Shown here in pieces: positions 1 to 47,082 of a stretch of DNA of 47,082 nucleotides (position 1 is its first letter; every line of letters starts with the position of its first letter). This DNA is from Escherichia phage vB_EcoS_WF5505. The notes under the pieces are model-generated. The model searched no databases and was not told the origin of the DNA. It saw only the letters and a list, made by a program, of their open reading frames with translations. The stretch lies in the sequence record NC_073060.1; one strand, given 5' to 3'. A program made the translations under genes and the position numbers.

Positions 1-103
1 CAGCAGATAGCGATCAACTTTTTCATACGCATGATTAATATTGGTTGCATTCAGCCTGGCACCCTGCTAGATTGGTTGCACACCAACGAGAGGACCAAAC
101 AAA

Positions 104-274
104 ATGAAATTTCCAGTAACCATCAAAGACGGTAAATCAACTATCACCTTCACCAGCAACGACCAGGGCACCTATGAAAGCGGGGCGACTTGCATGTCTA
201 CCCTGGACGATGTGATGATTCGTGTTAATTCCGGTAAAGCCTCGATTGTTGACGACAACACTAAGAAGGACTGA
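104..274 (+). CDS. Hypothetical small early protein (56 aa, MKFPVTIKDG...)
   Basis: ATG preceded by GAGAGG Shine-Dalgarno; stop 3 nt before next ATG; under 60 aa so absent from ORF track. Confidence 0.5.
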   Translation: MKFPVTIKDGKSTITFTSNDQGTYESGATCMSTLDDVMIRVNSGKASIVDDNTKKD

Positions 275-277
275 ACA

Positions 278-583
278 ATGAGAGCATTAATCTGGAAATA
301 CTCACGGGCCATAGCGAAGCTGGACGAAGCGAAAAACACAAACGGCAACGTAGACTATGCGCGCCAGTTTGCGGCACGGGCACACCAACACATCATGAGT
401 GCGCTCGACGATATGGACGCCAGCATGGATGACCTGGGTCCGCTGCGTAAGGCTATCCATGAATACGCGCTGGCATTCTCCCGTGAGCGCCTGGCCTATC
501 GCTTCGGTATTGGCGATAAGGCAGTGACAAACGTTGCCCGGATTAAAGCCCAGCGTGAGCTATTCGCCCAGCTTGCGAAATAA
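278..583 (+). CDS. Hypothetical early protein (101 aa)
   Basis: Track ORF in a tightly packed same-strand gene run; no recognisable motif. Confidence 0.6.
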   Translation: MRALIWKYSRAIAKLDEAKNTNGNVDYARQFAARAHQHIMSALDDMDASMDDLGPLRKAIHEYALAFSRERLAYRFGIGDKAVTNVARIKAQRELFAQLAK

Positions 584-592
584 GAGGCCAAA

Positions 593-862
593 ATGACCCG
601 TAGACGCGCAAAACAGCTTTCGTGGCATATCCCCCTGCATTGCATACGAATATGGGCTAAGAATGCGAATGAGGGCGATTCAGTGTTCTGGTGCTATCGC
701 GACGACGTTAAGCCGTTGACGCAGACTCGCTACTTGCACCAGTTCGCAGCACAACACGATTTCAGGGTGCGGACTTCCTTGCAACCAATGGGGATCCGTA
801 TTACATTACGCCGGAAGCCCGCCGTTGAGCGGGTAGGCAAACACTGGAGACTGAGCAAATGA
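593..862 (+). CDS. Hypothetical early protein (89 aa)
   Basis: Track ORF; stop overlaps start of next gene (ATGA coupling). Confidence 0.55.
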   Translation: MTRRRAKQLSWHIPLHCIRIWAKNANEGDSVFWCYRDDVKPLTQTRYLHQFAAQHDFRVRTSLQPMGIRITLRRKPAVERVGKHWRLSK

Positions 863-1203
863 TTCGAGTAACCGCACGCCACGAACAATCGGGGGCCACT
901 TACGATGTAATCGACGTTCGCGGCGCGTTCGTCATCTTCGGACGGGGTGACGACCGGCTGGCGCTGCCGATCGGTATGCTGAGCACATACGACTATTTCA
1001 AGCATAACGTCCGGTGTGGCGATGTGCTGCGCGATAAGCGCACCGGTGAGCTATGGACGGTGGCGAGTATTTGGGTGAAAGATAAACGGCAGCACACGTT
1101 ATTGCTCGCCCGCCCGGATTGCAAACAGCAAACTATTAACACTATTGGCCTGGTGGACTACACCCGCGTAGGCCGTAACGCTACCTGGAGACTGAGAAAA
1201 TGA
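859..1203 (+). CDS. Hypothetical protein, paralogue A (114 aa)
   Basis: Track ORF; shares GDVLRD-R-G-LW-V and GL--Y-RVGR motifs with the next gene. Confidence 0.6.
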   Translation: MIRVTARHEQSGATYDVIDVRGAFVIFGRGDDRLALPIGMLSTYDYFKHNVRCGDVLRDKRTGELWTVASIWVKDKRQHTLLLARPDCKQQTINTIGLVDYTRVGRNATWRLRK

Positions 1204-1832
1204 AATTACTATTCCGCCGTAACTCAGATGGCTATATCCTGAAGCCGATCCAGACCCTATCGAACTGGGTACGCCTCCACCACGTTGCGAGTGATAAAGT
1301 CTGGTGGGCGACTAAGGCAAAGCTGCCGGAGTACTACGAAATCCTCACACACGATATCGAGCGCGGCGATGTGCTGCGGGATATTCGCGACGGGCAATTG
1401 TGGGTCGTGGAATACGTGGGTCGGCACGGCCTGCGTATGACGTCCCGCAAGGATGGCGTAGCGGGCAACATGGTCAAGGGCATGACTTACTTCGGGCTAC
1501 TCCACTACGAACGAGTGGGCCGCAAGTACAGCCTGCGTGCGCGCCAGCCTCATGAGCGAGCGAACGCCATAGCGGACGTCGTTAACCGCGTAGCGCGGGA
1601 GGTGGAGCAGAAGACACGCGTTGAGTTCTGCAAGTCCCAGCCAGCCTATGCAACCTACGACGCGAGCAAAGCGCAGGAATTGATCCGCAGTGCCACGCAT
1701 GAAATCATCAATCACGTTGATGCCATGACGAACGCCAAGCGCCAGGCCAGCGAATACGGCGTAGGATTCATCCGTGTCGAACAAGACGGCAACATGACCG
1801 CCATCGACCCGCGCACGGTAATACTGAAATGA
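1200..1832 (+). CDS. Hypothetical protein, paralogue B (210 aa)
   Basis: Track ORF; N-terminal half is paralogous to 859-1203, translationally coupled (ATGA). Confidence 0.6.
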   Translation: MKLLFRRNSDGYILKPIQTLSNWVRLHHVASDKVWWATKAKLPEYYEILTHDIERGDVLRDIRDGQLWVVEYVGRHGLRMTSRKDGVAGNMVKGMTYFGLLHYERVGRKYSLRARQPHERANAIADVVNRVAREVEQKTRVEFCKSQPAYATYDASKAQELIRSATHEIINHVDAMTNAKRQASEYGVGFIRVEQDGNMTAIDPRTVILK

Positions 1833-1953
1833 GCGCAACTATCCGTGATATGCTTATGCATAACCGCTTTGAGATAGGCGGGAGAGTGTTCTGCAATTAC
1901 TTCGTGGCGCGTGCTTGGGCGCGCCATATCGGAAAACCAGTAGGGGCAATACG

Positions 1954-2241
1954 ATGCTACACGATTTGATATTTTGGTTTGGTTTGGGGTGTGCGTCACT
2001 CTTTGCTATAGTGCTGGCGCTGTTGATTTGGATCTTTCTGGTATGGCCCGCGGTGGAAGCCGCCAGCATTACCCGGATGACGTTCCAGATATACAAGCGC
2101 CGAGGCATAACGGAACACCCGACCAGGTTGCGCATGTGGTGGCTATGGTATCTGGATATGCTTGGAGGCCGAAGGTTTGAGGCCGTCCGATCATCCGGGT
2201 GGGAATGGAAAGGCGTCGGCAAGTGGTCCATTTTCGATTAA
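1954..2241 (+). CDS. Small membrane protein (about 95 aa)
   Basis: ATG with AGGGG RBS, in frame with track ORF 1915-2241; hydrophobic helix FWFGLGCASLFAIVLALLIWIFLVW. Confidence 0.5.
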   Translation: MLHDLIFWFGLGCASLFAIVLALLIWIFLVWPAVEAASITRMTFQIYKRRGITEHPTRLRMWWLWYLDMLGGRRFEAVRSSGWEWKGVGKWSIFD

Positions 2242-14308: not shown

Positions 14309-14428
14309 ATGAATCCGGCTGTTATTGCAGCGTTGCTGGCGGCGCTGGCGACGAAAGAGAAAGAGAAAGAGGAAGAACCAGTACCGCCGGAAGTACCGGC
14401 GCAGGAGGAAGACGATGGCGGGATTTGA
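14309..14428 (+). CDS. Possible 39-aa acidic peptide
   Basis: ATG with AGGGG RBS, Lys/Glu repeat KEKEKEEE; overlaps next gene start; may be spurious. Confidence 0.25.
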   Translation: MNPAVIAALLAALATKEKEKEEEPVPPEVPAQEEDDGGI

Positions 14429-14768
14429 CTACGCAGGCTTAAAGCGGAAAGTAAATCCGCTGATTAAAAAATTCGGCATGACAGTTACCGTGACGCGTCC
14501 TGGATCGGTTGACCGCGTAGACGGCAACGAGATAGTAATCCCGCCAACGTCGTTTGATATCATCGGGCTTCGAGAGGAGTACAAGCCTCGTGAGATCGAC
14601 GGGACTCGGGTCATTGCCGGTGATGTTAAGTTCTTATGTCAGGCGGCGGAGCAAGTGCAGGTAGGCGATCTGGTTAACCTGAATAACACAGATTACCGTG
14701 TTATCAATCCTACCCCACTGCAACCGGCGGGCACTACCATGCTGTTTCAATTACAGCTAAGGGGCTAA
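14415..14768 (+). CDS. Putative head-tail joining protein (117 aa)
   Basis: ATG with AGGAGGA RBS, in frame inside track ORF 14325-14768 whose Arg-rich extension looks like a frame artefact. Confidence 0.45.
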   Translation: MAGFDYAGLKRKVNPLIKKFGMTVTVTRPGSVDRVDGNEIVIPPTSFDIIGLREEYKPREIDGTRVIAGDVKFLCQAAEQVQVGDLVNLNNTDYRVINPTPLQPAGTTMLFQLQLRG

Positions 14769-35768: not shown

Positions 35769-38060
35769 TTACTTCCTGTACCGATACATAATGTCGCCTT
35801 CGGCGGCAAGTGGGAAACCTTTCGCCCATATAGGCAGGTCACACATCAGCGCGCAAAGCTCCTCGGTCGTGTAATCGTCGGTGTCCGGCACTTCGGTGAT
35901 CAATTCATCGTGCACTGACAGGACGATTTCATAGCCCGCAGCTTCAACACCAGGCATGGACCATGCGAGAATATCGCGGCACAACGCCTGTACGATGTTC
36001 TCCGTAAGTTTGCCGCCGTAGGTGTACTGGAATCCCCACTGGCGCGTCGTCTGATTCTCGCCCTGGTATTTGATGCGGGTACTGGTGCGCTTCTTGCCGG
36101 TGTCTTCGTCAATCTCGGTAGTGACAGACAGCGCGATTCCGGGGTAGCTCATGATTCGCCCTGACGGCAACTCAACCTTCAGCCACCAGCCCGCGGCGTT
36201 CGGGTCGTCGCGTTCCTCGTCAAAGGTGGGGTCGTGCTTCGCCTTCGTGCGCACAATCTTGAGCGCTTTCTTGCCATCCGGGCGAACGTTCGCGCCAGCC
36301 CAGTATGCCTTACCTGGATTGCGTATCGCACATAACACCGCCTCCTCAAGCTCGGCCCAAAAGGCTACGGTCTTCGGGTGAGATTCACGCCACATACGTT
36401 TGATCGCGTCGCAGGTCAACCACACGTTTTTAGGCAGTATGTAAGTCGGGCGCTCGTCTTTCTTGCCGGGCTTCGGCGGGCGCTTCGCTTCGTTGATGCG
36501 GGCAAACTCATAACCGCGTTTAGCCGCCGCCCAAATATGATCGGGGAATGTTCCCTTCATGACGTCAGCCATTGCGTACAGGTCGAGGCCCAGGTTTTTA
36601 GCAAACTGCAAGAACGCCGCGACGCCGCCACCATAGCCCAGTCCCAATTCACACGCCTTACCAATCTGGCGTAGGTCTTTGCGGTTGGCTTTGATGTAGT
36701 CCGGGTCAAGGCCAAACATCTTACCGGCAGTTTCACAATAGATATCGCGTCCGGCCTTAAACACCATAAGCGCGGTTTTCTCGCCAGCGATCCAGGCAAG
36801 GCCACGCCCTTCCACGTTGGAGTAGTCCGCTACAACAAACTTCTTGCCCTTAGCCGGGATAATGCACCCGCGAACGGTCGAGGCGGTTAGCTTCGATATG
36901 TCATACGCCCAGTGCGCGGTCCCGCGTAACAGGGAGTTGATGCCGTTGGTGAGCATGTGCGACCGTACCCAAAACGAGACGTCGCTCTCACCTTCGCGGC
37001 GCTTAATCTTCCCTTCGTGGTCATCACTGTACTCGCCACGTGCCAGGTTTTGAGGCTGAAAGCCTTTACCGGCCCAGCGTAGTGTGCGCTTTGCCCCACC
37101 ATACTGAAGACAACCACGGCGGCGACCATCGGCAGAAAGACCATTGACGAGCGGATTGTATTTAGTCGATGCCGTTGATGACGCGCCGAGGCGCATTTCA
37201 ATAAGCACTTTGCCCTCGTCGGGGAAGTCTGGATCTTCCAGCAAGTCATTCAGCGTGGATTTCTGCGCGTTGTGAATGGTGAACGCCGGGGCAATATCAC
37301 GCAGGATTGGCAGGAAGTCATTACCGGTCAGTTTACCGCCGAACAGTTCCCAGGCTTCTTCCTTCAATTCTTCTTTGTGCACCTGCACCGCCTTGATCGC
37401 GGCGTTCGCCAGGTCAACGTCCACATAGAAGCCACGGTCGTTAATCAACTGGTCGATACGCAGGATTTCATCTTCCTTCGGTGAGTTGCCCCAGTCCGGT
37501 ATTCGCCAGTAGACTTCACGCATTGCGATAATATCCAGCGCGGCATAGCGCAGGAATTTAGCCCATTCTTCAGGGTGAGTCTCGCGCGTGTAGCGGCGGA
37601 TTTTGTAGGTCTTAGGGGTCGGCTTACAAAATCGCTTAATCAGCGCCTTGCCTGCCTTATCCTTCGCGTGCTCTGCGTCAACGCCCAGCACCTGGCATTG
37701 CATATCGAGGCCACCCGGCAGCGCGTGACGAAAGGCCATAATCATAGTATCTTCGATCTGGCTTACCGGCAGGTCGATACCCCACTTTTCACGGATAACC
37801 AGGCGGTCAAACAGGAGGCCGTTAGCCATCACTATTTTTGCTTTCTTGCGGGATACGCGGCGGAGCGCCTTGCGTAGTTCGCGCGGCATTGTGGGGGATT
37901 CAGTGGCGTCCCATGTCTGCACGCGGCCCTCGTCGATGGCGTAGGTGCAAATCATAATCTCGGTGGATGGGTGTTCCGCGTAGGCATACGCACCTGCTTT
38001 CTTCAGGTCTACCCCGCTAAACGTCTCGGTGTCTAGAAACAGGCGTTCGAAGTCTTTCAT
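35769..38060 (-). CDS. DNA polymerase, family A, with 3'-5' exonuclease domain
   Basis: 763 aa; N-terminal Exo I motif LFLDTETFSG; polymerase-like motifs further on; within replication gene cluster. Confidence 0.85.
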   Translation of the reverse strand: MKDFERLFLDTETFSGVDLKKAGAYAYAEHPSTEIMICTYAIDEGRVQTWDATESPTMPRELRKALRRVSRKKAKIVMANGLLFDRLVIREKWGIDLPVSQIEDTMIMAFRHALPGGLDMQCQVLGVDAEHAKDKAGKALIKRFCKPTPKTYKIRRYTRETHPEEWAKFLRYAALDIIAMREVYWRIPDWGNSPKEDEILRIDQLINDRGFYVDVDLANAAIKAVQVHKEELKEEAWELFGGKLTGNDFLPILRDIAPAFTIHNAQKSTLNDLLEDPDFPDEGKVLIEMRLGASSTASTKYNPLVNGLSADGRRRGCLQYGGAKRTLRWAGKGFQPQNLARGEYSDDHEGKIKRREGESDVSFWVRSHMLTNGINSLLRGTAHWAYDISKLTASTVRGCIIPAKGKKFVVADYSNVEGRGLAWIAGEKTALMVFKAGRDIYCETAGKMFGLDPDYIKANRKDLRQIGKACELGLGYGGGVAAFLQFAKNLGLDLYAMADVMKGTFPDHIWAAAKRGYEFARINEAKRPPKPGKKDERPTYILPKNVWLTCDAIKRMWRESHPKTVAFWAELEEAVLCAIRNPGKAYWAGANVRPDGKKALKIVRTKAKHDPTFDEERDDPNAAGWWLKVELPSGRIMSYPGIALSVTTEIDEDTGKKRTSTRIKYQGENQTTRQWGFQYTYGGKLTENIVQALCRDILAWSMPGVEAAGYEIVLSVHDELITEVPDTDDYTTEELCALMCDLPIWAKGFPLAAEGDIMYRYRK

Positions 38061-38227
38061 TGCTTTATCCTCACAACGGCGTCAGCGCTGCCGATCATGG
38101 AGAAGATACCGTCGGAAAGGGCAATCTCTTCGCCGTTGTTGCGAATCTCGGCAACGGTAAAATACTCACCCAGCAATTTGGACCACACACGCATTCCGAC
38201 TTTTACTTCACTGGCTTTAATACGCAT
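38057..38227 (-). CDS. Small hypothetical protein (56 aa) coupled to polymerase
   Basis: ATG at 38227, stop overlaps polymerase start (ATGA); below track cut-off; terminator just upstream. Confidence 0.35.
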   Translation of the reverse strand: MRIKASEVKVGMRVWSKLLGEYFTVAEIRNNGEEIALSDGIFSMIGSADAVVRIKQ

Positions 38228-38243
38228 TTTTCATTGTCCTAAT

Positions 38244-38268
38244 AAAAAGCCCGCATTAAGCGGGCTTG
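38244..38268 (-). terminator. Rho-independent terminator (minus strand)
   Basis: AAGCCCGC-TTAAT-GCGGGCTT hairpin followed on minus strand by TTTTTATT; after SSB-like gene. Confidence 0.6.
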
Positions 38269-38285
38269 AATAGTGGGCTTTGCCC

Positions 38286-39074
38286 TTAGCGGCGGCGACG
38301 TTTACGTGGTGCTTCGTCTTCGTCGTCTTCGCCCTCATCTTCGTCATCGCGGGACTTACGACGCTTGCGAGGTTTCTCATCTTCCTCGTCTTCGTCATCG
38401 TCGTCGCGGCGCTTGTACTTCTTGGACTTGCGCGGCTTATCATCTTCGTCATCGTCATCGCGACGTTTGGACTTCTTAGCCTTGCGCGGTGCTTCATCTT
38501 CGTCATCGTCGCCCAGGTCGTCATCGGAACAAGAAGACCCGCCGCCACCGAAGGAATCACCATCATCACGGAAGCGAAGACCCATCAAACCGGCACCGAG
38601 TCCTTTACCGTTGGTGTTGTTCCACGCCCAAATATCCAGGGACACGTTGCAATAACAACCGGAATAGATTTCCTGGCCTTCGATCTCGTCGCCGTCGATG
38701 GTCAGACCCTGTTCGGTCTGCTTCTCGCCCAGTGACGTTTGGATGTTAGGCTGTTTGAACGATTTGGCGTTGATGTACAGCATGCCTTCAAACTCTTCGG
38801 TTACTTCGTCGCGCTCATCACCGTCGCGAACTGCGCATTCCTTAGAATCCTGGGCGTAGTGGCGGTCCATCCACTTATCGGCGTTCTTCTCGGATTTCAG
38901 CTTGTCGGTGAGCACTGCGCGCGCTGCCGCTTCCACTTTGTCCACCTGCGGATCTTCTTTATCAAGAAGAATCACGGCACGGTATGCCGGTTTTTGTCCA
39001 TCCTGTTTAGGGGTATCACGTTCCCAAATTTTCAGGAAGCATACGCGCACGTTTTTCAGGTTGACTTTAGCCAT
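38286..39074 (-). CDS. Putative ssDNA-binding protein (DUF2815-like) with charged repeat tail
   Basis: N-terminus MAKVNLKNVRVCF; C-terminal about 80 aa of alternating (D/E)n and PRK-KK-KRR blocks; adjacent to polymerase and nuclease. Confidence 0.5.
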   Translation of the reverse strand: MAKVNLKNVRVCFLKIWERDTPKQDGQKPAYRAVILLDKEDPQVDKVEAAARAVLTDKLKSEKNADKWMDRHYAQDSKECAVRDGDERDEVTEEFEGMLYINAKSFKQPNIQTSLGEKQTEQGLTIDGDEIEGQEIYSGCYCNVSLDIWAWNNTNGKGLGAGLMGLRFRDDGDSFGGGGSSCSDDDLGDDDEDEAPRKAKKSKRRDDDDEDDKPRKSKKYKRRDDDDEDEEDEKPRKRRKSRDDEDEGEDDEDEAPRKRRRR

Positions 39075-39163
39075 TTTTCATTTCCTCATTTCGCATGTAT
39101 CGGGGTTATTGTGAGCCACCCCGTTCGGCTTGGTTGCTAATTTACTTGGTTGCGCCTAAGCGG

Positions 39164-39406
39164 TCAAGCACTTTTATTAAAAAGATTTCGGGTCACGTAG
39201 TCGGAGGCGTTCTCGATCCAGCTTAACGGCGGGCGGTCTTTATGCTTTAACACCCAGTCTACGGCAACGTCACTGTAGCCATCGTCCAGCCAGCGGGATG
39301 GATGGCGAATCATCCAGGCCACCATTAACACGCCTTGCACGCAATGCAGGATAAATCCCAGCGCGCCGAGCATAATCATCAATACGAATGCAAATACCTT
39401 ATTCAT
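39164..39406 (-). CDS. Small membrane protein (80 aa)
   Basis: Two hydrophobic helices (FAFVLMIMLGALGFILHCV, VLMVAWMI). Confidence 0.45.
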   Translation of the reverse strand: MNKVFAFVLMIMLGALGFILHCVQGVLMVAWMIRHPSRWLDDGYSDVAVDWVLKHKDRPPLSWIENASDYVTRNLFNKSA

Positions 39407-40799
39407 TGCTTAAGTCCTCGTCAGTAGCTTCAGACCACGCGGGGCGCGGGTCATCGATTGGTGCCAACACCGGTTTAGCCGGTGCGCGCGTGATTTTATC
39501 ACACAATTTCGCCCACACTTTCGGTTTCTCGTCCTTCAATACCTTCTCGGCATCGGTAGGACTGAGTAATGTTTCTTTATACATTACGTCACGCTTGATC
39601 CGGGCCTTCGTGAAGACTTCAATCACTTCGCTCTCATCCGCCCACTTGCGAATCCCTTCCTTACCGGCAACCATCTTGAGGCCCAGCGATTCACCATCGC
39701 CCGCCATTACGGCCTTGAATACCGCGGACTCGATAGCCTTGATGTGCTGGCGCATTGCGTCAAGACCTTCATATGCCTTGCGCAGTTCCGCCGCGCTCAT
39801 AGCGCCTGGTGCTTCTTCTTCTTTCTTGCCACGCTTCGCACGTCGTGCCGCTTTCCGGGCTTCGCGATCGGTAGCCTTCGGTGCTTCGTCCGCCAGGTCG
39901 TCGTCTGTTGCCGTTGGTGGGGTCATCGTGTCGATGGCGGCCTTAGCGCGGGCACTACACTGATCCGCAAATCTACACCACTGACAGGCATCAACGCTCG
40001 GTCGGAAGTCGGCACGGGTAAGTCCCTTCTTGCCGCGGGAATACGCGTCCAGTGCGTCAATAGCACGCTTGGATGCAAACTTCGCGAATATCTCCAGCGC
40101 TTCCACGGTAATATCCCACTCCGACGCCCCGCCGCAATACGGCTGGAAGATTACCAGGCGAACGGTTGTAATGTCGTACATGGTTTGCAGCTTGCGCAGC
40201 AGGCCCAGCGCGTACAACATAAGCTGTTTGTTTTCTTTCGCCTCGACCTTATGTCGCCCGGTCTTCAGGTCGCCAACAATAAGCATGTACGTGCCGTCGG
40301 TCTTCTTCATGACCATGACCATATCCGCAGTGCCGAACGTCTTAACCCTGTTGCCGTCTATCTCGAAGCCGGGGTGCAAGATGCGGGTGAGATCGGCGCG
40401 CATTTCAAGCTGGACAAACTCCGCCACTTCAAGGAGCGGTCGCCAGTGGTCGATGTACGCGTCACACTGTTTCACCATATCGTCGTTGACCAGTACGCCG
40501 CCTTTCGGTGCTTTCGGGTGCGCCTTTACCGGCCCCTTACCTTCGTTCTCAACGTAACACCCTTTGTACGTCTTCGCGGATAGCTTCTTCTCTCCGGCAA
40601 TGATGCGGTTTAGCACGACTTCTGATACGGTGTGCATACTCGTACCGTTAATCGCAGCTTGCCCGGATTCGTTCGGGATACCTTTTTCGACTACCAGGGC
40701 GGCGGGGCACCCCATCCATTTTTTAGATCCCGATGGCCCGAGTAATGAGTGTTCGGTATTGCTACCGGATTGCGTTTTGCGCTTTGGTTTAATAGCCAT
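39399..40799 (-). CDS. RecB/Cas4-like PD-(D/E)XK exonuclease (DUF2800-like)
   Basis: 466 aa; C-terminal Cys cluster CQWCRFADQC; family assignment from recalled domain architecture. Confidence 0.55.
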   Translation of the reverse strand: MAIKPKRKTQSGSNTEHSLLGPSGSKKWMGCPAALVVEKGIPNESGQAAINGTSMHTVSEVVLNRIIAGEKKLSAKTYKGCYVENEGKGPVKAHPKAPKGGVLVNDDMVKQCDAYIDHWRPLLEVAEFVQLEMRADLTRILHPGFEIDGNRVKTFGTADMVMVMKKTDGTYMLIVGDLKTGRHKVEAKENKQLMLYALGLLRKLQTMYDITTVRLVIFQPYCGGASEWDITVEALEIFAKFASKRAIDALDAYSRGKKGLTRADFRPSVDACQWCRFADQCSARAKAAIDTMTPPTATDDDLADEAPKATDREARKAARRAKRGKKEEEAPGAMSAAELRKAYEGLDAMRQHIKAIESAVFKAVMAGDGESLGLKMVAGKEGIRKWADESEVIEVFTKARIKRDVMYKETLLSPTDAEKVLKDEKPKVWAKLCDKITRAPAKPVLAPIDDPRPAWSEATDEDLSNE

Positions 40800-41283: not shown

Positions 41284-41805
41284 TTAATCTTCTAATTCGA
41301 AATACGTTTCTACGATTTCTTTTAAATCTTTGTGGAAGTCTTCGACGTCGTCATCTTCCAGCTTGGCAACGGATTTAATTTCGAACGCTTCCAGCAGATC
41401 ATCAAATTCGTCGTTTGCGTCGTCGTCATCACCGCCCGCAATAATAGCGGCATACTGCTTGATTTCGTCGCGCATTTCTTTCAGCGGATCGGCATCTTTC
41501 TTGCCTTTACCTTTCGCCGGTGCTTTCTTAGACTTCGCTGGGGCTTCTTCTTCGTCGTCCGCGTCGTCGTCTTCTTCTACGGCTTCTTTCTTAGCCTTGC
41601 CCTTAGCCGGGGCTTTTTTGGTCTTAGCCGGAGCTTCGTCTTCAGCGTCGTCATCTTCGACCACTTCTTCTTTCGCCTTGCCATTAGCCGGGGCTTTCTT
41701 CGCTTCCTGTTTACCAACGGCAGCGCCAGCAGTTTCATAATGCTTAGCGATTACTTCCAGTGCTACTACGCCGCGTGTGATCAGGTTTACGATTTGCTCA
41801 AACAT
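41284..41805 (-). CDS. Hypothetical acidic protein with tandem charged repeats (173 aa)
   Basis: Two copies of (D/E)n-EAPAK-KKAPAKGK-KK, then acidic C-terminus; first gene of the minus-strand module. Confidence 0.55.
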   Translation of the reverse strand: MFEQIVNLITRGVVALEVIAKHYETAGAAVGKQEAKKAPANGKAKEEVVEDDDAEDEAPAKTKKAPAKGKAKKEAVEEDDDADDEEEAPAKSKKAPAKGKGKKDADPLKEMRDEIKQYAAIIAGGDDDDANDEFDDLLEAFEIKSVAKLEDDDVEDFHKDLKEIVETYFELED

Positions 41806-42412: not shown

Positions 42413-44677
42413 ATGAGCTTAATTAAATTCGCAGTAACAAGACCCGCTAAAAAAGGCGAAAAAGCCAGGGCGGAAAACTTCGAGATGACCACTGATGAAT
42501 TTTTCGAATTTATCAATGATGCAAAAGAAATCTCGTCGGTGCATATCAACAAGACAGAAGATAAAGCCGAGTATGCGCGCCGCAAGCGTAAGGCCGATGG
42601 TATCGTGGCATATACCAATGACGGATTACGCCGCAAGACCAGTGCGGTCGACCGCTCGATCCTGTTCTTCGATATCGACCGTACTGACACCCGCACTTTA
42701 CGCCGCTGCCGTAAGGCGTTCACCGACGCTGGTCTGGAGCATGTATTTCACACCACGACCGGCGACCGTCACCCGTTGAAAGGCGGAACACGTTGCGCCC
42801 GTTTCCTGGTGCTCACTGATAAGCCTGTACCGGCGGAAGACCTGGGCCGCGTCCAGTATGCATTGTTAGACCAACTGGGCCTGTCAGATGTGGACTTCGA
42901 CGATTGTACAAAAGACACAAACCGCCTTATGTACCTGCCTCACCAGCAGTCTGTCATAAAGTGCCATTATGGCAAGCGCGCCCGTGTCCGTCGTCTGCTT
43001 CGCCTGGCTGACAAGCTGGGAGTTGAGAAAGAGGAAGTGCGCCGCGAACTGACCCAGGGCGACGATGGCGTGGCGGACGGGATTCTGGACTGGTGCTTCC
43101 AGGCTGGCTTTGAACCACTGTCATCCGGTCGCGGTTATGAAGTGCCGTGCCCGAATGAGCACCTGCATAGCGGTGAAGGGTCGACGGCTATCATGGTTAA
43201 GGATGGCGAGATCCGTTTCAAGTGTATGCACACCGGCAACGAATGCTGTTCCGAACTGAATAAACACCAGCACCTGGCGTTACGTCTGATCGGTATCCCG
43301 GACCACTTGAACGTCGAACCACACAACATGTCACGCAAGCAAATCGCCGCCATCCTTCCTGGACTGGACGACGAGGAAGTGGAATCGTGCTACGAGCATA
43401 TTGTTGATGCGGTCGGAGACGGCGACGAGTACGGCGAATGCACCGACGCTGACCTGGACAACGAGCCGGTCGCACTGTTCAGTAAGCACGACCCGATTAT
43501 CGAAGGCCTGGTCAACTTCAAATCGACCTGGTATATGGCGGGTGAGTCGAACATTGGTAAGTCGTTCTACGTGCTGGGCCAGATGGGCGCTGTTGCCGCG
43601 GGCATTCCGTTCGGCGGCGCGAAGGTCGTCCAGTCGCATTGCTTCTATTTCGATGCGGAAGGCGGCGAAGCCTCCAACCAGCGTAAAGAAGCATTGCAGA
43701 TCAAATATGAGCACGACCTCGACAAGCTGCACATTATCGACCTGCAATCACGCGGCTGGGATATTACCAGCAAGTCAGGCTTGCGCGAGGTTATCAGCTT
43801 TATCAACCGCACCGCTAACGGGGAGCCGGTTGGCCTGGTGGCCTTCGACTCACTCAACCAGACTGTAGCGCTGCGGTCCGCTGATGCCAAACCGTTCGAC
43901 GAGAACAACGCAAGCGATATGGGCGAAGTGGTCAAGGCGCTGAAGTCCATTGCGGAAAATACAGGTGGCAGTGCGGGCGTCATCCATCACCCGGCTAAGG
44001 GTGCAAACGGCAGCAGGTCACCACGCGGGTCCGGCGCGCTTCATGGTGCTGTAGATTCTGCGTTCTTCCTGGAACAGCCGGACGATAATCAGCCAGGCCA
44101 GCTTAACCTGTATCACGAAAAGTCACGTAACGGCATCAAGCAAGCGCCGCGTGGCTTCGTCCTGCTCAAGTGCAAAGTTAAGGTGGATCTCCGTAAGTCT
44201 GATGCGTTCGAAGCCCACCAGTCCACCAGCACCGGGCCAGACTTCGGCGATGTGGTTGCCGGTTGGGACGTCAAGCCAATTGCATCCACGCCACGCGACG
44301 AGACTCTCTACCTCGTACCGGTCGCCCTGGCACCGTTCGCTATCGAACAGGCTAAGGCAGCAGGCAAGGCAGCAGTTAAGGAAGAGAACACCGCCGGACC
44401 GCGCAACGAGAAAGAGAAGGTGCTTTATGCGGCACTGGAAAAACTGATGGAAGATAACCCGGACCATACTGGATTCAGTAAATCGGCAATTGTCCGCCAG
44501 GCTGGACTTGCGAAAGGTGGCACATCGACGAAGGCAATCGACGATATGGTAGAGCGCGGAGTGCTCGGATTTTATACAGACCCACACACCGGGGCCATCT
44601 ATGGGTCGTCGAATTTAGTCATCAAATCGGATATACCCATCACGCTTTCAGCGACCGATGACGACCTGAAAGATTAA
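42413..44677 (+). CDS. DNA primase / replicative helicase
   Basis: 754 aa; Cys/His cluster CPNEHLHSGEG...KCMHTGNECC; C-terminal Walker A GESNIGKS; coupled to HTH gene. Confidence 0.7.
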   Translation: MSLIKFAVTRPAKKGEKARAENFEMTTDEFFEFINDAKEISSVHINKTEDKAEYARRKRKADGIVAYTNDGLRRKTSAVDRSILFFDIDRTDTRTLRRCRKAFTDAGLEHVFHTTTGDRHPLKGGTRCARFLVLTDKPVPAEDLGRVQYALLDQLGLSDVDFDDCTKDTNRLMYLPHQQSVIKCHYGKRARVRRLLRLADKLGVEKEEVRRELTQGDDGVADGILDWCFQAGFEPLSSGRGYEVPCPNEHLHSGEGSTAIMVKDGEIRFKCMHTGNECCSELNKHQHLALRLIGIPDHLNVEPHNMSRKQIAAILPGLDDEEVESCYEHIVDAVGDGDEYGECTDADLDNEPVALFSKHDPIIEGLVNFKSTWYMAGESNIGKSFYVLGQMGAVAAGIPFGGAKVVQSHCFYFDAEGGEASNQRKEALQIKYEHDLDKLHIIDLQSRGWDITSKSGLREVISFINRTANGEPVGLVAFDSLNQTVALRSADAKPFDENNASDMGEVVKALKSIAENTGGSAGVIHHPAKGANGSRSPRGSGALHGAVDSAFFLEQPDDNQPGQLNLYHEKSRNGIKQAPRGFVLLKCKVKVDLRKSDAFEAHQSTSTGPDFGDVVAGWDVKPIASTPRDETLYLVPVALAPFAIEQAKAAGKAAVKEENTAGPRNEKEKVLYAALEKLMEDNPDHTGFSKSAIVRQAGLAKGGTSTKAIDDMVERGVLGFYTDPHTGAIYGSSNLVIKSDIPITLSATDDDLKD

Positions 44678-44945: not shown

Positions 44946-45159
44946 AAATCCTGGATTGCATAATGCACGGCAGCATGATGAGAATTGCGGTCGTTGATGA
45001 ACTAGGCAACCAATGCGAGTTGGATAATGGAGAGTGAAAAATGCAGTTTGCAGTTACAGCAGATAGCGATCAACTTTTTCATACGCATGATTAATATTGG
45101 TTGCATTCAGCCTGGCACCCTGCTAGATTGGTTGCACACCAACGAGAGGACCAAACAAA

Positions 45160-45330
45160 ATGAAATTTCCAGTAACCATCAAAGACGGTAAATCAACTAT
45201 CACCTTCACCAGCAACGACCAGGGCACCTATGAAAGCGGGGCGACTTGCATGTCTACCCTGGACGATGTGATGATTCGTGTTAATTCCGGTAAAGCCTCG
45301 ATTGTTGACGACAACACTAAGAAGGACTGA
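45160..45330 (+). CDS. Duplicate of 104-274 (small early protein)
   Basis: Inside right repeat, identical sequence. Confidence 0.5.
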   Translation: MKFPVTIKDGKSTITFTSNDQGTYESGATCMSTLDDVMIRVNSGKASIVDDNTKKD

Positions 45331-45333
45331 ACA

Positions 45334-45639
45334 ATGAGAGCATTAATCTGGAAATACTCACGGGCCATAGCGAAGCTGGACGAAGCGAAAAACACAAACG
45401 GCAACGTAGACTATGCGCGCCAGTTTGCGGCACGGGCACACCAACACATCATGAGTGCGCTCGACGATATGGACGCCAGCATGGATGACCTGGGTCCGCT
45501 GCGTAAGGCTATCCATGAATACGCGCTGGCATTCTCCCGTGAGCGCCTGGCCTATCGCTTCGGTATTGGCGATAAGGCAGTGACAAACGTTGCCCGGATT
45601 AAAGCCCAGCGTGAGCTATTCGCCCAGCTTGCGAAATAA
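45334..45639 (+). CDS. Duplicate of 278-583
   Basis: Identical translation in ORF track. Confidence 0.6.
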   Translation: MRALIWKYSRAIAKLDEAKNTNGNVDYARQFAARAHQHIMSALDDMDASMDDLGPLRKAIHEYALAFSRERLAYRFGIGDKAVTNVARIKAQRELFAQLAK

Positions 45640-45648
45640 GAGGCCAAA

Positions 45649-45918
45649 ATGACCCGTAGACGCGCAAAACAGCTTTCGTGGCATATCCCCCTGCATTGCA
45701 TACGAATATGGGCTAAGAATGCGAATGAGGGCGATTCAGTGTTCTGGTGCTATCGCGACGACGTTAAGCCGTTGACGCAGACTCGCTACTTGCACCAGTT
45801 CGCAGCACAACACGATTTCAGGGTGCGGACTTCCTTGCAACCAATGGGGATCCGTATTACATTACGCCGGAAGCCCGCCGTTGAGCGGGTAGGCAAACAC
45901 TGGAGACTGAGCAAATGA
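45649..45918 (+). CDS. Duplicate of 593-862
   Basis: Identical translation in ORF track. Confidence 0.55.
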   Translation: MTRRRAKQLSWHIPLHCIRIWAKNANEGDSVFWCYRDDVKPLTQTRYLHQFAAQHDFRVRTSLQPMGIRITLRRKPAVERVGKHWRLSK

Positions 45919-46259
45919 TTCGAGTAACCGCACGCCACGAACAATCGGGGGCCACTTACGATGTAATCGACGTTCGCGGCGCGTTCGTCATCTTCGGACG
46001 GGGTGACGACCGGCTGGCGCTGCCGATCGGTATGCTGAGCACATACGACTATTTCAAGCATAACGTCCGGTGTGGCGATGTGCTGCGCGATAAGCGCACC
46101 GGTGAGCTATGGACGGTGGCGAGTATTTGGGTGAAAGATAAACGGCAGCACACGTTATTGCTCGCCCGCCCGGATTGCAAACAGCAAACTATTAACACTA
46201 TTGGCCTGGTGGACTACACCCGCGTAGGCCGTAACGCTACCTGGAGACTGAGAAAATGA
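45915..46259 (+). CDS. Duplicate of 859-1203 (paralogue A)
   Basis: Identical translation in ORF track. Confidence 0.6.
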   Translation: MIRVTARHEQSGATYDVIDVRGAFVIFGRGDDRLALPIGMLSTYDYFKHNVRCGDVLRDKRTGELWTVASIWVKDKRQHTLLLARPDCKQQTINTIGLVDYTRVGRNATWRLRK

Positions 46260-46888
46260 AATTACTATTCCGCCGTAACTCAGATGGCTATATCCTGAAG
46301 CCGATCCAGACCCTATCGAACTGGGTACGCCTCCACCACGTTGCGAGTGATAAAGTCTGGTGGGCGACTAAGGCAAAGCTGCCGGAGTACTACGAAATCC
46401 TCACACACGATATCGAGCGCGGCGATGTGCTGCGGGATATTCGCGACGGGCAATTGTGGGTCGTGGAATACGTGGGTCGGCACGGCCTGCGTATGACGTC
46501 CCGCAAGGATGGCGTAGCGGGCAACATGGTCAAGGGCATGACTTACTTCGGGCTACTCCACTACGAACGAGTGGGCCGCAAGTACAGCCTGCGTGCGCGC
46601 CAGCCTCATGAGCGAGCGAACGCCATAGCGGACGTCGTTAACCGCGTAGCGCGGGAGGTGGAGCAGAAGACACGCGTTGAGTTCTGCAAGTCCCAGCCAG
46701 CCTATGCAACCTACGACGCGAGCAAAGCGCAGGAATTGATCCGCAGTGCCACGCATGAAATCATCAATCACGTTGATGCCATGACGAACGCCAAGCGCCA
46801 GGCCAGCGAATACGGCGTAGGATTCATCCGTGTCGAACAAGACGGCAACATGACCGCCATCGACCCGCGCACGGTAATACTGAAATGA
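46256..46888 (+). CDS. Duplicate of 1200-1832 (paralogue B)
   Basis: Identical translation in ORF track. Confidence 0.6.
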   Translation: MKLLFRRNSDGYILKPIQTLSNWVRLHHVASDKVWWATKAKLPEYYEILTHDIERGDVLRDIRDGQLWVVEYVGRHGLRMTSRKDGVAGNMVKGMTYFGLLHYERVGRKYSLRARQPHERANAIADVVNRVAREVEQKTRVEFCKSQPAYATYDASKAQELIRSATHEIINHVDAMTNAKRQASEYGVGFIRVEQDGNMTAIDPRTVILK

Positions 46889-47009
46889 GCGCAACTATCC
46901 GTGATATGCTTATGCATAACCGCTTTGAGATAGGCGGGAGAGTGTTCTGCAATTACTTCGTGGCGCGTGCTTGGGCGCGCCATATCGGAAAACCAGTAGG
47001 GGCAATACG

Positions 47010-47082
47010 ATGCTACACGATTTGATATTTTGGTTTGGTTTGGGGTGTGCGTCACTCTTTGCTATAGTGCTGGCGCTGTTGA
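47010..47082 (+). CDS. 5' fragment of duplicate of 1954-2241, truncated by window end
   Basis: Same sequence as 1954-2026; the window (and the repeat) ends inside the gene. Confidence 0.4.
   Translation, partial: MLHDLIFWFGLGCASLFAIVLALL

Follow-up and report, generated by a model that had tools for sequence, protein, structure and literature searches.

Charge-block repeats and a shared acidic peptide in the tail of a Dhillonvirus single-stranded-DNA-binding protein

The SSB gene and its tail

The DNA analysed here, 47,082 nucleotides (nt) of Escherichia phage vB_EcoS_WF5505 (NC_073060.1; the window), is the complete genome of a Dhillonvirus, an HK578-like Escherichia coli phage, and our subject is the C-terminal tail of its SSB, the protein that binds single-stranded DNA. 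The final 74 residues of the SSB are four units, each consisting of an acidic run, the dipeptide AP or KP, and a basic run. Immediately before the repeats stands the short peptide CSDDDL (peptide form CSDDDLGDDDEDE), here called motif A, versions of which are also found in a nuclease and in the primase-helicase of the same phage. After the OB domain, amino acids (aa) 1-176, the order is GGG-SS-CSDDDLG, the four units and then, without further residues, the stop codon.

38286-39074, minus strand: SSB gene, 262 aa, gp2.5/Enc34 type, probable annealing protein (open reading frame (ORF) and PF10991)
38547-39074, minus strand: OB-fold single-stranded DNA (ssDNA)-binding domain, aa 1-176 (AlphaFold2 and Pfam)
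38511-38546, minus strand: glycine linker and motif A, GGGSSCSDDDLG (translation); core CSDDDLG at 38511-38531
38460-38510, minus strand: unit 1, DDDEDEAPRKAKKSKRR, DDDEDE-AP-RKAKKSKRR (translation)
38406-38459, minus strand: unit 2, DDDDEDDKPRKSKKYKRR, DDDDEDD-KP-RKSKKYKRR (inside the 54-nt array of Tandem Repeats Finder)
38349-38405, minus strand: unit 3, DDDDEDEEDEKPRKRRKSR, DDDDEDEEDE-KP-RKRRKSR (translation)
38289-38348, minus strand: unit 4 and conserved basic C-terminus, DDEDEGEDDEDEAPRKRRRR, DDEDEGEDDEDE-AP-RKRRRR (translation)

By its sequence matches the protein is assigned to the Enc34/T7 gp2.5-type SSBs of PF10991 (Enc34_ssDNA-bd, formerly DUF2815), the profile being matched by aa 3-193 over positions 2-172 of 176 (E=6e-32, 111.2 bits, cutoff 26). 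It also matched phrog_112, "Gp2.5-like ssDNA binding and annealing protein" (E=1.6e-52), and the solved DUF2815/Enc34 chains PDB 4KLK (6e-13), 5ODJ (1e-9) and 4JG2. PF10991 was the sole Pfam match; PF00436, the OB domain of E. coli-type SSBs, was not matched, and the tail terminates in RRRR instead of a DDDIPF-type tip. AlphaFold2, run on an 86-sequence alignment, modelled aa 1-170 with pLDDT mostly above 90 as a strand-rich fold with two helices, and aa 177-262 with pLDDT around 50 and no secondary structure except a helical turn at aa 184-186. The predicted layout is therefore a compact, beta-rich OB-type domain followed by an unstructured C-terminal segment.

A first-pass annotation of this DNA had placed a tail of four alternating acidic and basic units, encoded by imperfect GA[CT]-rich repeats, at 38286-38520 of a DUF2815-like SSB. 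The PF10991 match bears out the family, the coordinates are correct (aa ~186-262 plus the stop codon), and translation and a shuffle test both confirmed the alternation. Among the 77 tail residues 63 are charged (35 D/E and 28 K/R), and they form only 8 same-sign runs, compared with 32.1 +/- 3.9 in composition-preserving shuffles, none of 20,000 of which reached 8. The tripeptide PRK occurs four times (0.13 expected; 0 of 20,000 shuffles), and every basic block holds 6-8 K/R per 7-9 residues. At the DNA level, Tandem Repeats Finder reported a period of 54 nt with 2.3 copies and 84% matches at 38389-38511, as well as GA[CT]-type periods of 6 and 9 nt. With a net charge of -9 and a kappa-like charge-segregation index of 0.61, the tail is predicted to be a disordered, blocky polyampholyte. 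A charged single alpha-helix (SAH) was considered and rejected: the same-sign blocks are 6-12 residues long and Asp-rich, a proline stands at each junction, and AlphaFold2 gives coil. The protein ends in APRKRRRR and so lacks an acidic C-terminal end with a hydrophobic or aromatic anchor; its acidic-hydrophobic peptide, CSDDDL, is internal (aa 182-187).

Two further observations concern this segment. A second frame is open across the repeats and continues past the stop codon and the terminator (38231-38569, minus strand; MTKMKHRARLRSPN...LLGQ). Taken alone, tail residues 184-260 (38286-38522, minus strand) weakly match (E=2.7e-4) phrog_15004 in its C-terminal part; this family, labelled "single strand DNA binding protein", is a distinct one and much longer. 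The match may reflect composition only, or tails of this charge-block kind may have evolved on phage SSBs that are not related.

Variation and conservation of the units

Copy-number variation was read from INPHARED records; a single-protein scan of IMG/VR gave only 14 loci. Among Dhillonvirus isolates whose OB domains are 96-100% identical, tails of one to four units occur: phage welsh has one (202 aa, ...CSDEDLDNDDEDEAPRKRRRR), EP23 two, HK578 and Envy three each, and vB_EcoS_WF5505 and most other isolates four. Small in-frame indels are found besides these changes of unit number. The first acidic run and the terminal EDEAPRKRRRR were retained in every in-frame Dhillonvirus SSB examined, the one-unit variant included. 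That repeat number would differ between isolates had been anticipated from the sequence, and it does, as does the length of a comparable charged region in a second protein described below (23-87 aa among the relatives compared).

Charge-block tails are not peculiar to this phage; they are widespread in PF10991 proteins. At least one basic block was present in 107 of the 110 PF10991 relatives analysed from public genomes and metagenomes (range 0-9), with a fraction of charged residues of ~0.63 and a charge-segregation index (kappa) of ~0.53 in their tails. Enc34, the other solved members and a few short relatives carry a plain acidic tail only. Net charge of the tail lies between -1 and -26 in all in-frame relatives except P0016 (+7), independent of copy number, and 56 of 117 relatives have an Arg-rich C-terminus. 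At 381 of 399 acidic-to-basic junctions in these 117 relatives, a proline follows the acidic run within four residues (Pro background 4.7%); with proline at 95% of junctions, the unit has a defined signature that goes beyond mere compositional bias. The acidic-Pro-basic pattern is kept even where OB identity is only 27-40%, with different codons and different choices between K and R. The unit is a family-wide module whose copy number changes easily and without loss of the reading frame; the probable cause is that the 54-nt DNA repeats slip or recombine unequally.

One isolate departs from the in-frame rule. In vB_EcoS-22664B1 (L021, MZ234008) a 2-nt insertion, CG, right after DDDLGD puts the whole array out of frame, and the annotated SSB is read in the alternative frame; the metagenomic cluster representative P0010 is likewise frameshifted. 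Either the insertion in vB_EcoS-22664B1 is an error of sequencing, or the repeats are naturally knocked out in this phage.

Motif A in the nuclease and the primase-helicase

Copies of motif A were located in two further proteins of the replication module, as follows.

39399-40799, minus strand: DUF2800 PD-(D/E)XK nuclease gene (PF10926, E=1.8e-66)
39402-39431, minus strand: motif A at the nuclease C-terminus, EATDEDLSNE, conserved in Dhillonviruses
39807-39914, minus strand: nuclease insert with internal motif A (TATDDDLADE) and one acidic/basic unit, TATDDDLADEAPKATDREARKAARRAKRGKKEEEAP
42413-44677: AAA_25-type primase-helicase gene (ORF and Pfam)
44648-44674, plus strand: motif A at the primase-helicase C-terminus, SATDDDLKD
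43439-43468, plus strand: motif-A-like copy in the primase-helicase interdomain region, CTDADLDNEP

Extended peptides of the motif are GSSCSDDDLGDDDEDE, WSEATDEDLSNE and TLSATDDDLKD, with DEDEAPRKRRRR as an accompanying peptide. In most SSB relatives motif A takes the form [ST]D[DE]DL or a DDF-type form. The nuclease insert is conserved in other Dhillonviruses as TATDEDLGDD...AREARKAARRAKRGK. In the window it is 10 residues shorter than in most Dhillonviruses (...DDDLADEAPKATDREARK... vs ...DEDLGDDVSIATEEECANHDRNMAREARK...; L001-L012 compared), so this charged insert is also prone to indels. The final ATDDDLKD of the primase-helicase is identical in 10 of 10 related loci, one of which has T for the preceding S; the C-termini of the primase-helicases of Jersey, K1G, eiAU, phiEap-2, Scapp and one metagenomic locus (L028) match motif A as well. 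The interdomain copy is also found in eiAU (CTDEDLEDEP) and phiEap-2 (CQDEDLMDEP).

The pattern [ST]D.DL, which was set post hoc after the data had been seen, occurs five times in the proteome of 14.5 thousand aa, where 0.48 are expected (0 of 2,000 shuffles reached five), and all five copies are confined to the SSB, the nuclease and the primase-helicase. Since the pattern was chosen in this way, the real test is its replication in other phages. Matched variants of motif A were found in 13 further lineages, listed here as SSB, nuclease C-terminus and primase-helicase C-terminus.

Jersey: SVDDLEDD; TAEDLE; TERDLE
K1G: SVNDLEDD; SEEDLE; TEEDLE
eiAU: ATDDDLSDD; KDDDLVD; TNSDLED
phiEap-2: ATDDDLDDE; SDDDLSN; EDDDLAD
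Scapp: ADDFDELDE; KSDFENLE; KEEFEELE
L028: ASEDDLGG; ADESDLN; TEEDLN
L024: SAKQDFKGFYAES; SAQSDFSQFIEVE; no primase-helicase entry
L025-L027 and L029-L031: [DE][DE]F[DE]D types; DEFNED, DLFDD, DMFDD or EMFED; no primase-helicase entry

In a permutation test on hand-checked segments, cognate SSB-nuclease pairs scored above permuted pairs (P ~1e-4). The corresponding values were P ~0.01-0.02 for nuclease against primase-helicase and P 0.03-0.12 for SSB against primase-helicase; the 10 lineages, with only ~4-5 motif types between them, are in part related to one another, and all of these P values overstate independence. At the level of sequence, motif A is thus shared by, and co-varies among, the SSB, the nuclease and the primase-helicase.

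The 173-aa protein and a motif at the far tip

Charged units of a similar kind lie in a second small protein of the module.

41284-41805, minus strand: gene of a 173-aa protein (phrog_3127)
41491-41733, minus strand: charged, length-variable disordered region, aa 25-105, with ~2.5 K/A/P-rich basic plus acidic units

The protein has no Pfam family and matches phrog_3127 (E=9.5e-50), for which no function is annotated. AlphaFold2 predicts a helix at aa 2-24, a stretch with pLDDT below 50 at aa 24-101 and an acidic three-helix domain at aa 107-169 (pLDDT ~90). Tandem Repeats Finder detected a 90-nt period with 2.0 copies at 41490-41668, the units being KKAPAKGKAKK plus EAVEEDDDADDEEEAP. Compared over 95 relatives, the two flanks are almost invariant, while the charged middle between them varies in length (23-87 aa) and in its acidic blocks (none to more than two). 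Proteins with this three-part layout are encoded at the equivalent place in Jersey, K1G, eiAU, phiEap-2, Scapp and metagenomic phages. The 173-aa protein counts as a conserved, uncharacterised member of the replication module. The Foldseek matches in BFVD were all to uncharacterised phage proteins, among them the MB78 "13.88 kDa late protein", eiAU Gp46 and a protein of Salmonella phage St162; PDB gave none at E<0.4. Some records label such proteins "TolA" (L019 7400-7858, which is Xoo-sp2 gp68; BFVD A0A0K0PVI6), a likely mis-annotation that probably arose because of the Lys/Ala/Pro/Glu-rich low-complexity region.

The first-pass annotation had pointed to similar units in the SSB and in this protein. 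The units are indeed alike in kind, and a DEAP[RA]K junction is common to both, but homology of the DNA was not detectable. Gene conversion between the two repeat regions was rejected (local DNA score 38, codon-shuffle maximum 35), and the longest exact word common to both is 13 nt. The likeness is one of pattern, without convincing DNA homology. In the window, only the SSB and the 173-aa protein hold dense acidic clusters. Dense basic clusters are found in the SSB and the nuclease and, outside these, solely at the extremely Arg/Lys/Trp-rich start, WRRWRRKRKRKRKNQYRRKYRRRRKT, of an unrelated ORF of 147 aa among the structural genes (14325-14768, plus strand), which has no Pfam match.

In a clade with Prim-Pol-type primases (L025-L027, L029-L031), the SSBs carry motif A, 4-10 repeat units and a far acidic-hydrophobic tip, and within each genome the 173-aa-like protein has a C-terminus that matches this tip (SSB tip; 173-aa-like C-terminus):

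L029: SRRDDDDI; SRRDDDDI (identical)
L026: DDDDVV; EEDDVV
L025: DDDVA; EEDLA
L027: DDDMA; EESLA
L030: DDDDLV; EDDLA
L031: DDYDY; DDDTY

Only 6 of 720 permutations equalled this pairing. From the layout in this clade, the architecture of the family is therefore OB domain, motif A, polyampholyte repeats and tip. Neither protein in the window has the shared tip, the SSB ending in PRKRRRR and the 173-aa protein in TYFELED. A distant PF10991 SSB, P0100 (L024 10001-10879), ends in DDDDDLPF, close to the E. coli SSB tip DDDIPF, and may hijack host proteins that bind the host SSB tip.

Genomic neighbourhood and host defence

The genome comprises 45,056 bp, and its opening 2,026 bp recur exactly at the end of the window (1-2026 = 45057-47082), which reflects either terminal redundancy or the wrap-around of an assembly that is circularly permuted. 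The replication module is 89-97% identical to that of many Dhillonvirus E. coli phages. It contains the duf2800-gp2.5-polA gene module reported previously (PMC8093625), with the nuclease, SSB and polymerase genes all on the minus strand. Further features around the SSB gene are:

35769-38060, minus strand: family A DNA polymerase gene (ORF and Pfam)
38237-38267, minus strand: intrinsic-terminator-like hairpin and T run directly past the SSB stop codon (an annotated terminator in related records)
39139-39167, minus strand: sigma-70-like promoter match upstream of the SSB gene (9/12 matches, weak alone)

In two related Dhillonvirus contigs (L005 7997-11185; L007 7901-11089) the polymerase ORF has 1,062 aa, not 763 aa, and Pfam matches only the usual DNA_pol_A segment; the additional ~300 aa are possibly an intein, a homing endonuclease fusion or a read-through. 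Some GenBank relatives have the polymerase annotated as two pieces. One metagenomic relative carries a Tad2-like (anti-Thoeris) gene between the nuclease and SSB genes (L027 7254-7517).

Phages SECphi4, SECphi6 and SECphi18 belong to the same genus, and their SSBs are almost identical to the present one in the OB domain. The SECphi4 orthologue is an experimentally shown trigger of Retron-Eco8, and a Dhillonvirus SSB also triggers a type III Sir2-HerA system. Reported escape from Retron-Eco8 involves T56P in the SECphi4 SSB, D25_P29dup in the SECphi6 SSB and, in SECphi18 and SECphi6, changes in the "intergenic region upstream" of the SSB gene; deletion of the T7 SSB tail left Eco8 activation unaffected. 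We accordingly rejected the idea that Retron-Eco8 senses the tail: the escape mutations seen lie in the OB domain or promoter, and T7 SSB activates the system without its tail. An 80-aa hydrophobic ORF lies just upstream of the SSB gene (39164-39406, minus strand). Its stop codon is mutated in one SECphi18 Eco8 escaper, and other escapers are changed in the intergenic region between this ORF and the SSB gene, which suggests that these changes act on SSB expression, with the promoter-like site at 39139-39167. Between the SSB and polymerase genes, a 56-aa ORF (38057-38227, minus strand) corresponds to the "SECphi4 56aa protein of unknown function"; a frameshift in this protein, E21fs, is among the defence-escape mutants (Stokar-Avihail et al., bioRxiv 2022.08.27.505566, supplement).

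Likeness to known systems

The closest studied relative is the ORF6 SSB of the Enterobacter/Hafnia phage Enc34 (PDB 5ODJ/5ODL), which belongs to the same Pfam family, lies in the same duf2800-gp2.5-polA neighbourhood and likewise consists of an OB fold followed by an unstructured C-terminal segment. Its tail is short and purely acidic (16 of the last 29 residues, ending ...WDEDEV according to the cloning primer; PMC5686142), whereas the tail in the window has four acidic/basic alternations and an RRRR end. Solved DUF2815 chains, including 4KLK and 4JG2, have 180-208 aa and no basic blocks, compared with a tail of ~86 aa here. Enc34 ORF6 prefers ssDNA; in the crystal its tail sits in the beta-sheet groove of a neighbouring molecule, and deletion of the tail permits binding of double-stranded DNA (PMC5686142).

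T7 gp2.5 shares its fold class with the present SSB, at a sequence identity too low for detection here. The T7 primase-helicase gp4 has an acidic C-terminal tail resembling that of gp2.5, and in the Dhillonvirus, too, SSB and primase-helicase both carry similar acidic peptides near a hydrophobic residue. Unlike in T7, the motif is internal in the SSB, the nuclease also carries it, and a long polyampholyte array follows. In T7, the tails touch the DNA polymerase and also, on the SSB itself, the DNA-binding cleft. Contacts of the gp2.5 tail with polymerase and helicase have been described (PMC10359462).

E. coli SSB has the same modular layout of DNA-binding core, variable disordered linker and docking peptide, and its linker drives cooperativity and condensation. 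The relatives match this layout, with the repeats as linker and DDDVA, DDDDI or DDDDDLPF as tip; the OB families are unrelated, however, and the protein in the window lacks an acidic tip. The E. coli linker is Gly/Pro/Gln-rich and weakly charged, whereas ~75-80% of the tail residues here are charged, in blocks. Disordered regions of alternating acidic and Lys/Arg(/Ala/Pro)-rich tracts are also known from eukaryotic nucleolar and chromatin proteins (Nopp140, nucleophosmin, nucleolin), where they are thought to act via multivalent electrostatic contacts. The KKAPAKGKAKK plus acidic units of the 173-aa protein look especially like these tracts. This likeness is compositional only: there is no homology, the kingdom is different and phosphoserines are absent.

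A proposed docking peptide and variable tether in the tail

With moderate confidence we infer that motif A is a docking peptide and the repeat array a tether or sticker. Motif A would bind a partner in the role of the acidic tails of T7 gp2.5 and gp4, and because the same peptide is found on the SSB, the DUF2800 nuclease and the primase-helicase, these three would compete for, or share, one receptor. Candidate receptors are the peptide-accepting groove of the SSB OB domain, in view of the Enc34 crystal with the tail in its neighbour's groove, and the DNA polymerase, by analogy with T7 gp2.5 and gp4. The repeats would then act as an electrostatic tether or sticker, flexible, tunable in length and almost self-neutralising, which, like the disordered linker of bacterial SSBs, extends the tail at little cost in net charge and, in the related clades, links motif A to the second tip motif. 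Blocks could pair with opposite blocks on neighbouring SSB tails, on the 173-aa protein and on the nuclease, and this pairing may tune the cooperativity and clustering of replication and recombination proteins on ssDNA, the number of units setting the valency.

Several points weigh against this reading, besides the post hoc choice of the pattern and the relatedness of the permuted lineages. The tail in the window ends in RRRR and has no second tip to tether, so that a linker role is borrowed from the relatives. The natural one-unit variant means that most of the array is not essential, and it fits near-neutral expansion equally as well as tuning. Basic blocks are absent from Enc34 and the other solved members, which function nevertheless. 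None of the SSB escape mutations of SECphi4 and SECphi6 lies in the tail, being found in the OB domain or promoter, and the tail is therefore without a known phenotype. That one to four units are tolerated speaks against an exact structural or stoichiometric task for every single unit, and pure neutrality is made less likely by how deeply the pattern and its junction proline are conserved.

It is unlikely, in our judgement, that the repeat units themselves recruit partners, the four acidic runs binding several (polymerase, primase-helicase) at once. The acidic runs do resemble the tails of T7 gp2.5 and Enc34, the conserved junction proline could be a recognition signature, and similar [DE][DE]xP[KR] junctions recur in the 173-aa protein and the nuclease insert. 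Yet near-identical, viable phages have anything from one to four copies, and the units lack the hydrophobic anchor residue that known SSB tips need. The first-pass suggestion of a recruiting acidic tail of the SSB type is better transferred to another part of the protein: the peptide actually common to the partners, and co-varying among them, is CSDDDL, upstream of the units, and the SSB itself ends in PRKRRRR.

We also give little credence to a near-neutral expansion of low-complexity sequence, in which GA[CT]/CG-rich 54-nt repeats slip, unit number and detail have no function, and selection acts only on the reading frame, on a net-acidic tail and on the last unit. Copy number does vary widely at very short evolutionary distance, the DNA repeats, 84% identical, favour slippage, and in the 173-aa protein as few as 23 aa, with no acidic block, can remain of the charged region. 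The 2-nt insertion that throws the array of vB_EcoS-22664B1 out of frame would fit as well, but this record may contain a sequencing error. Set against neutrality are the persistence of the pattern at 27-40% OB identity, arrays with up to ~9 basic blocks, the proline at 95% of junctions and the retention of at least one unit in almost all sampled members from proteobacterial phages. The tails are widespread in PF10991, and it is the number of units that can be dispensed with, as in the viable one-unit isolate.

Basic blocks acting as auxiliary nucleic-acid-binding arms, for affinity, bridging or annealing, with acidic runs that autoinhibit them until ssDNA is bound, appear distinctly unlikely. 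Each basic block is dense in K/R (6-8 per 7-9 residues), the family is annotated as an SSB and annealing protein, about half of the relatives (56/117) have an Arg-rich C-terminus, and deletion of the Enc34 tail alters DNA specificity. However, an acidic run of equal or greater length flanks every basic block, members without basic blocks such as Enc34 bind ssDNA well, and a net negative charge is found on the tail both in the window (-9) and in every in-frame relative other than P0016 (+7), which also speaks against the nucleic-acid condensation proposed in the first-pass annotation. Diversification driven by host defence, the variable charged tail serving as decoy or for evasion of a sensor, is very improbable: although a Dhillonvirus SSB triggers Retron-Eco8 and type III Sir2-HerA and variation in this protein, elsewhere 96-100% conserved, is greatest in the tail, Eco8 escape mutations fall in the OB domain or promoter, none in the tail, and T7 tail deletion leaves Eco8 activation unaffected.

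Implications

Our search of the literature found no description of the charge-block repeats or the shared motifs, an absence that is not proof. Published work covers the OB domain, the Enc34 acidic tail and the gene module; the Dhillonvirus tail appears only as "flexible C-terminal residues" left out of a figure.

Returning to motif A as a docking peptide and the repeats as a tether, a wider and more speculative extension, which we put forward as a rather doubtful conjecture, is that a large group of phages with the duf2800-gp2.5-polA module wire their replication and recombination proteins with two co-evolving motifs, motif A on the SSB, nuclease and primase-helicase and motif B on the far SSB tip and the 173-aa-like protein, and with disordered charge-block tethers that, by multivalent pairing of acidic with basic blocks, form a condensate-like compartment for replication or recombination. 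If this is true, the SSB would set its valency through a rapidly evolving repeat number, and the 173-aa protein would be a scaffold of the compartment that had gone unnoticed.

Phage SSBs have a central part in replication and recombination, serve as recombineering tools and are sensed by several bacterial defence systems. Should the repeats prove neutral, recognising them would still be useful for annotation, the open alternative frame having already given at least one mis-annotated protein. The tail described here appears modular, with a docking motif, a variable number of charge-block repeats and then a tip, and near-identical phages with one to four units provide a natural allelic series that is ideal for probing charge-block disordered regions in bacteria. 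From the shared motifs follow concrete, inexpensive hypotheses about binding partners in a replisome that is still to be reconstituted, and how this very common but unstudied phage replication module is wired thereby becomes directly testable.

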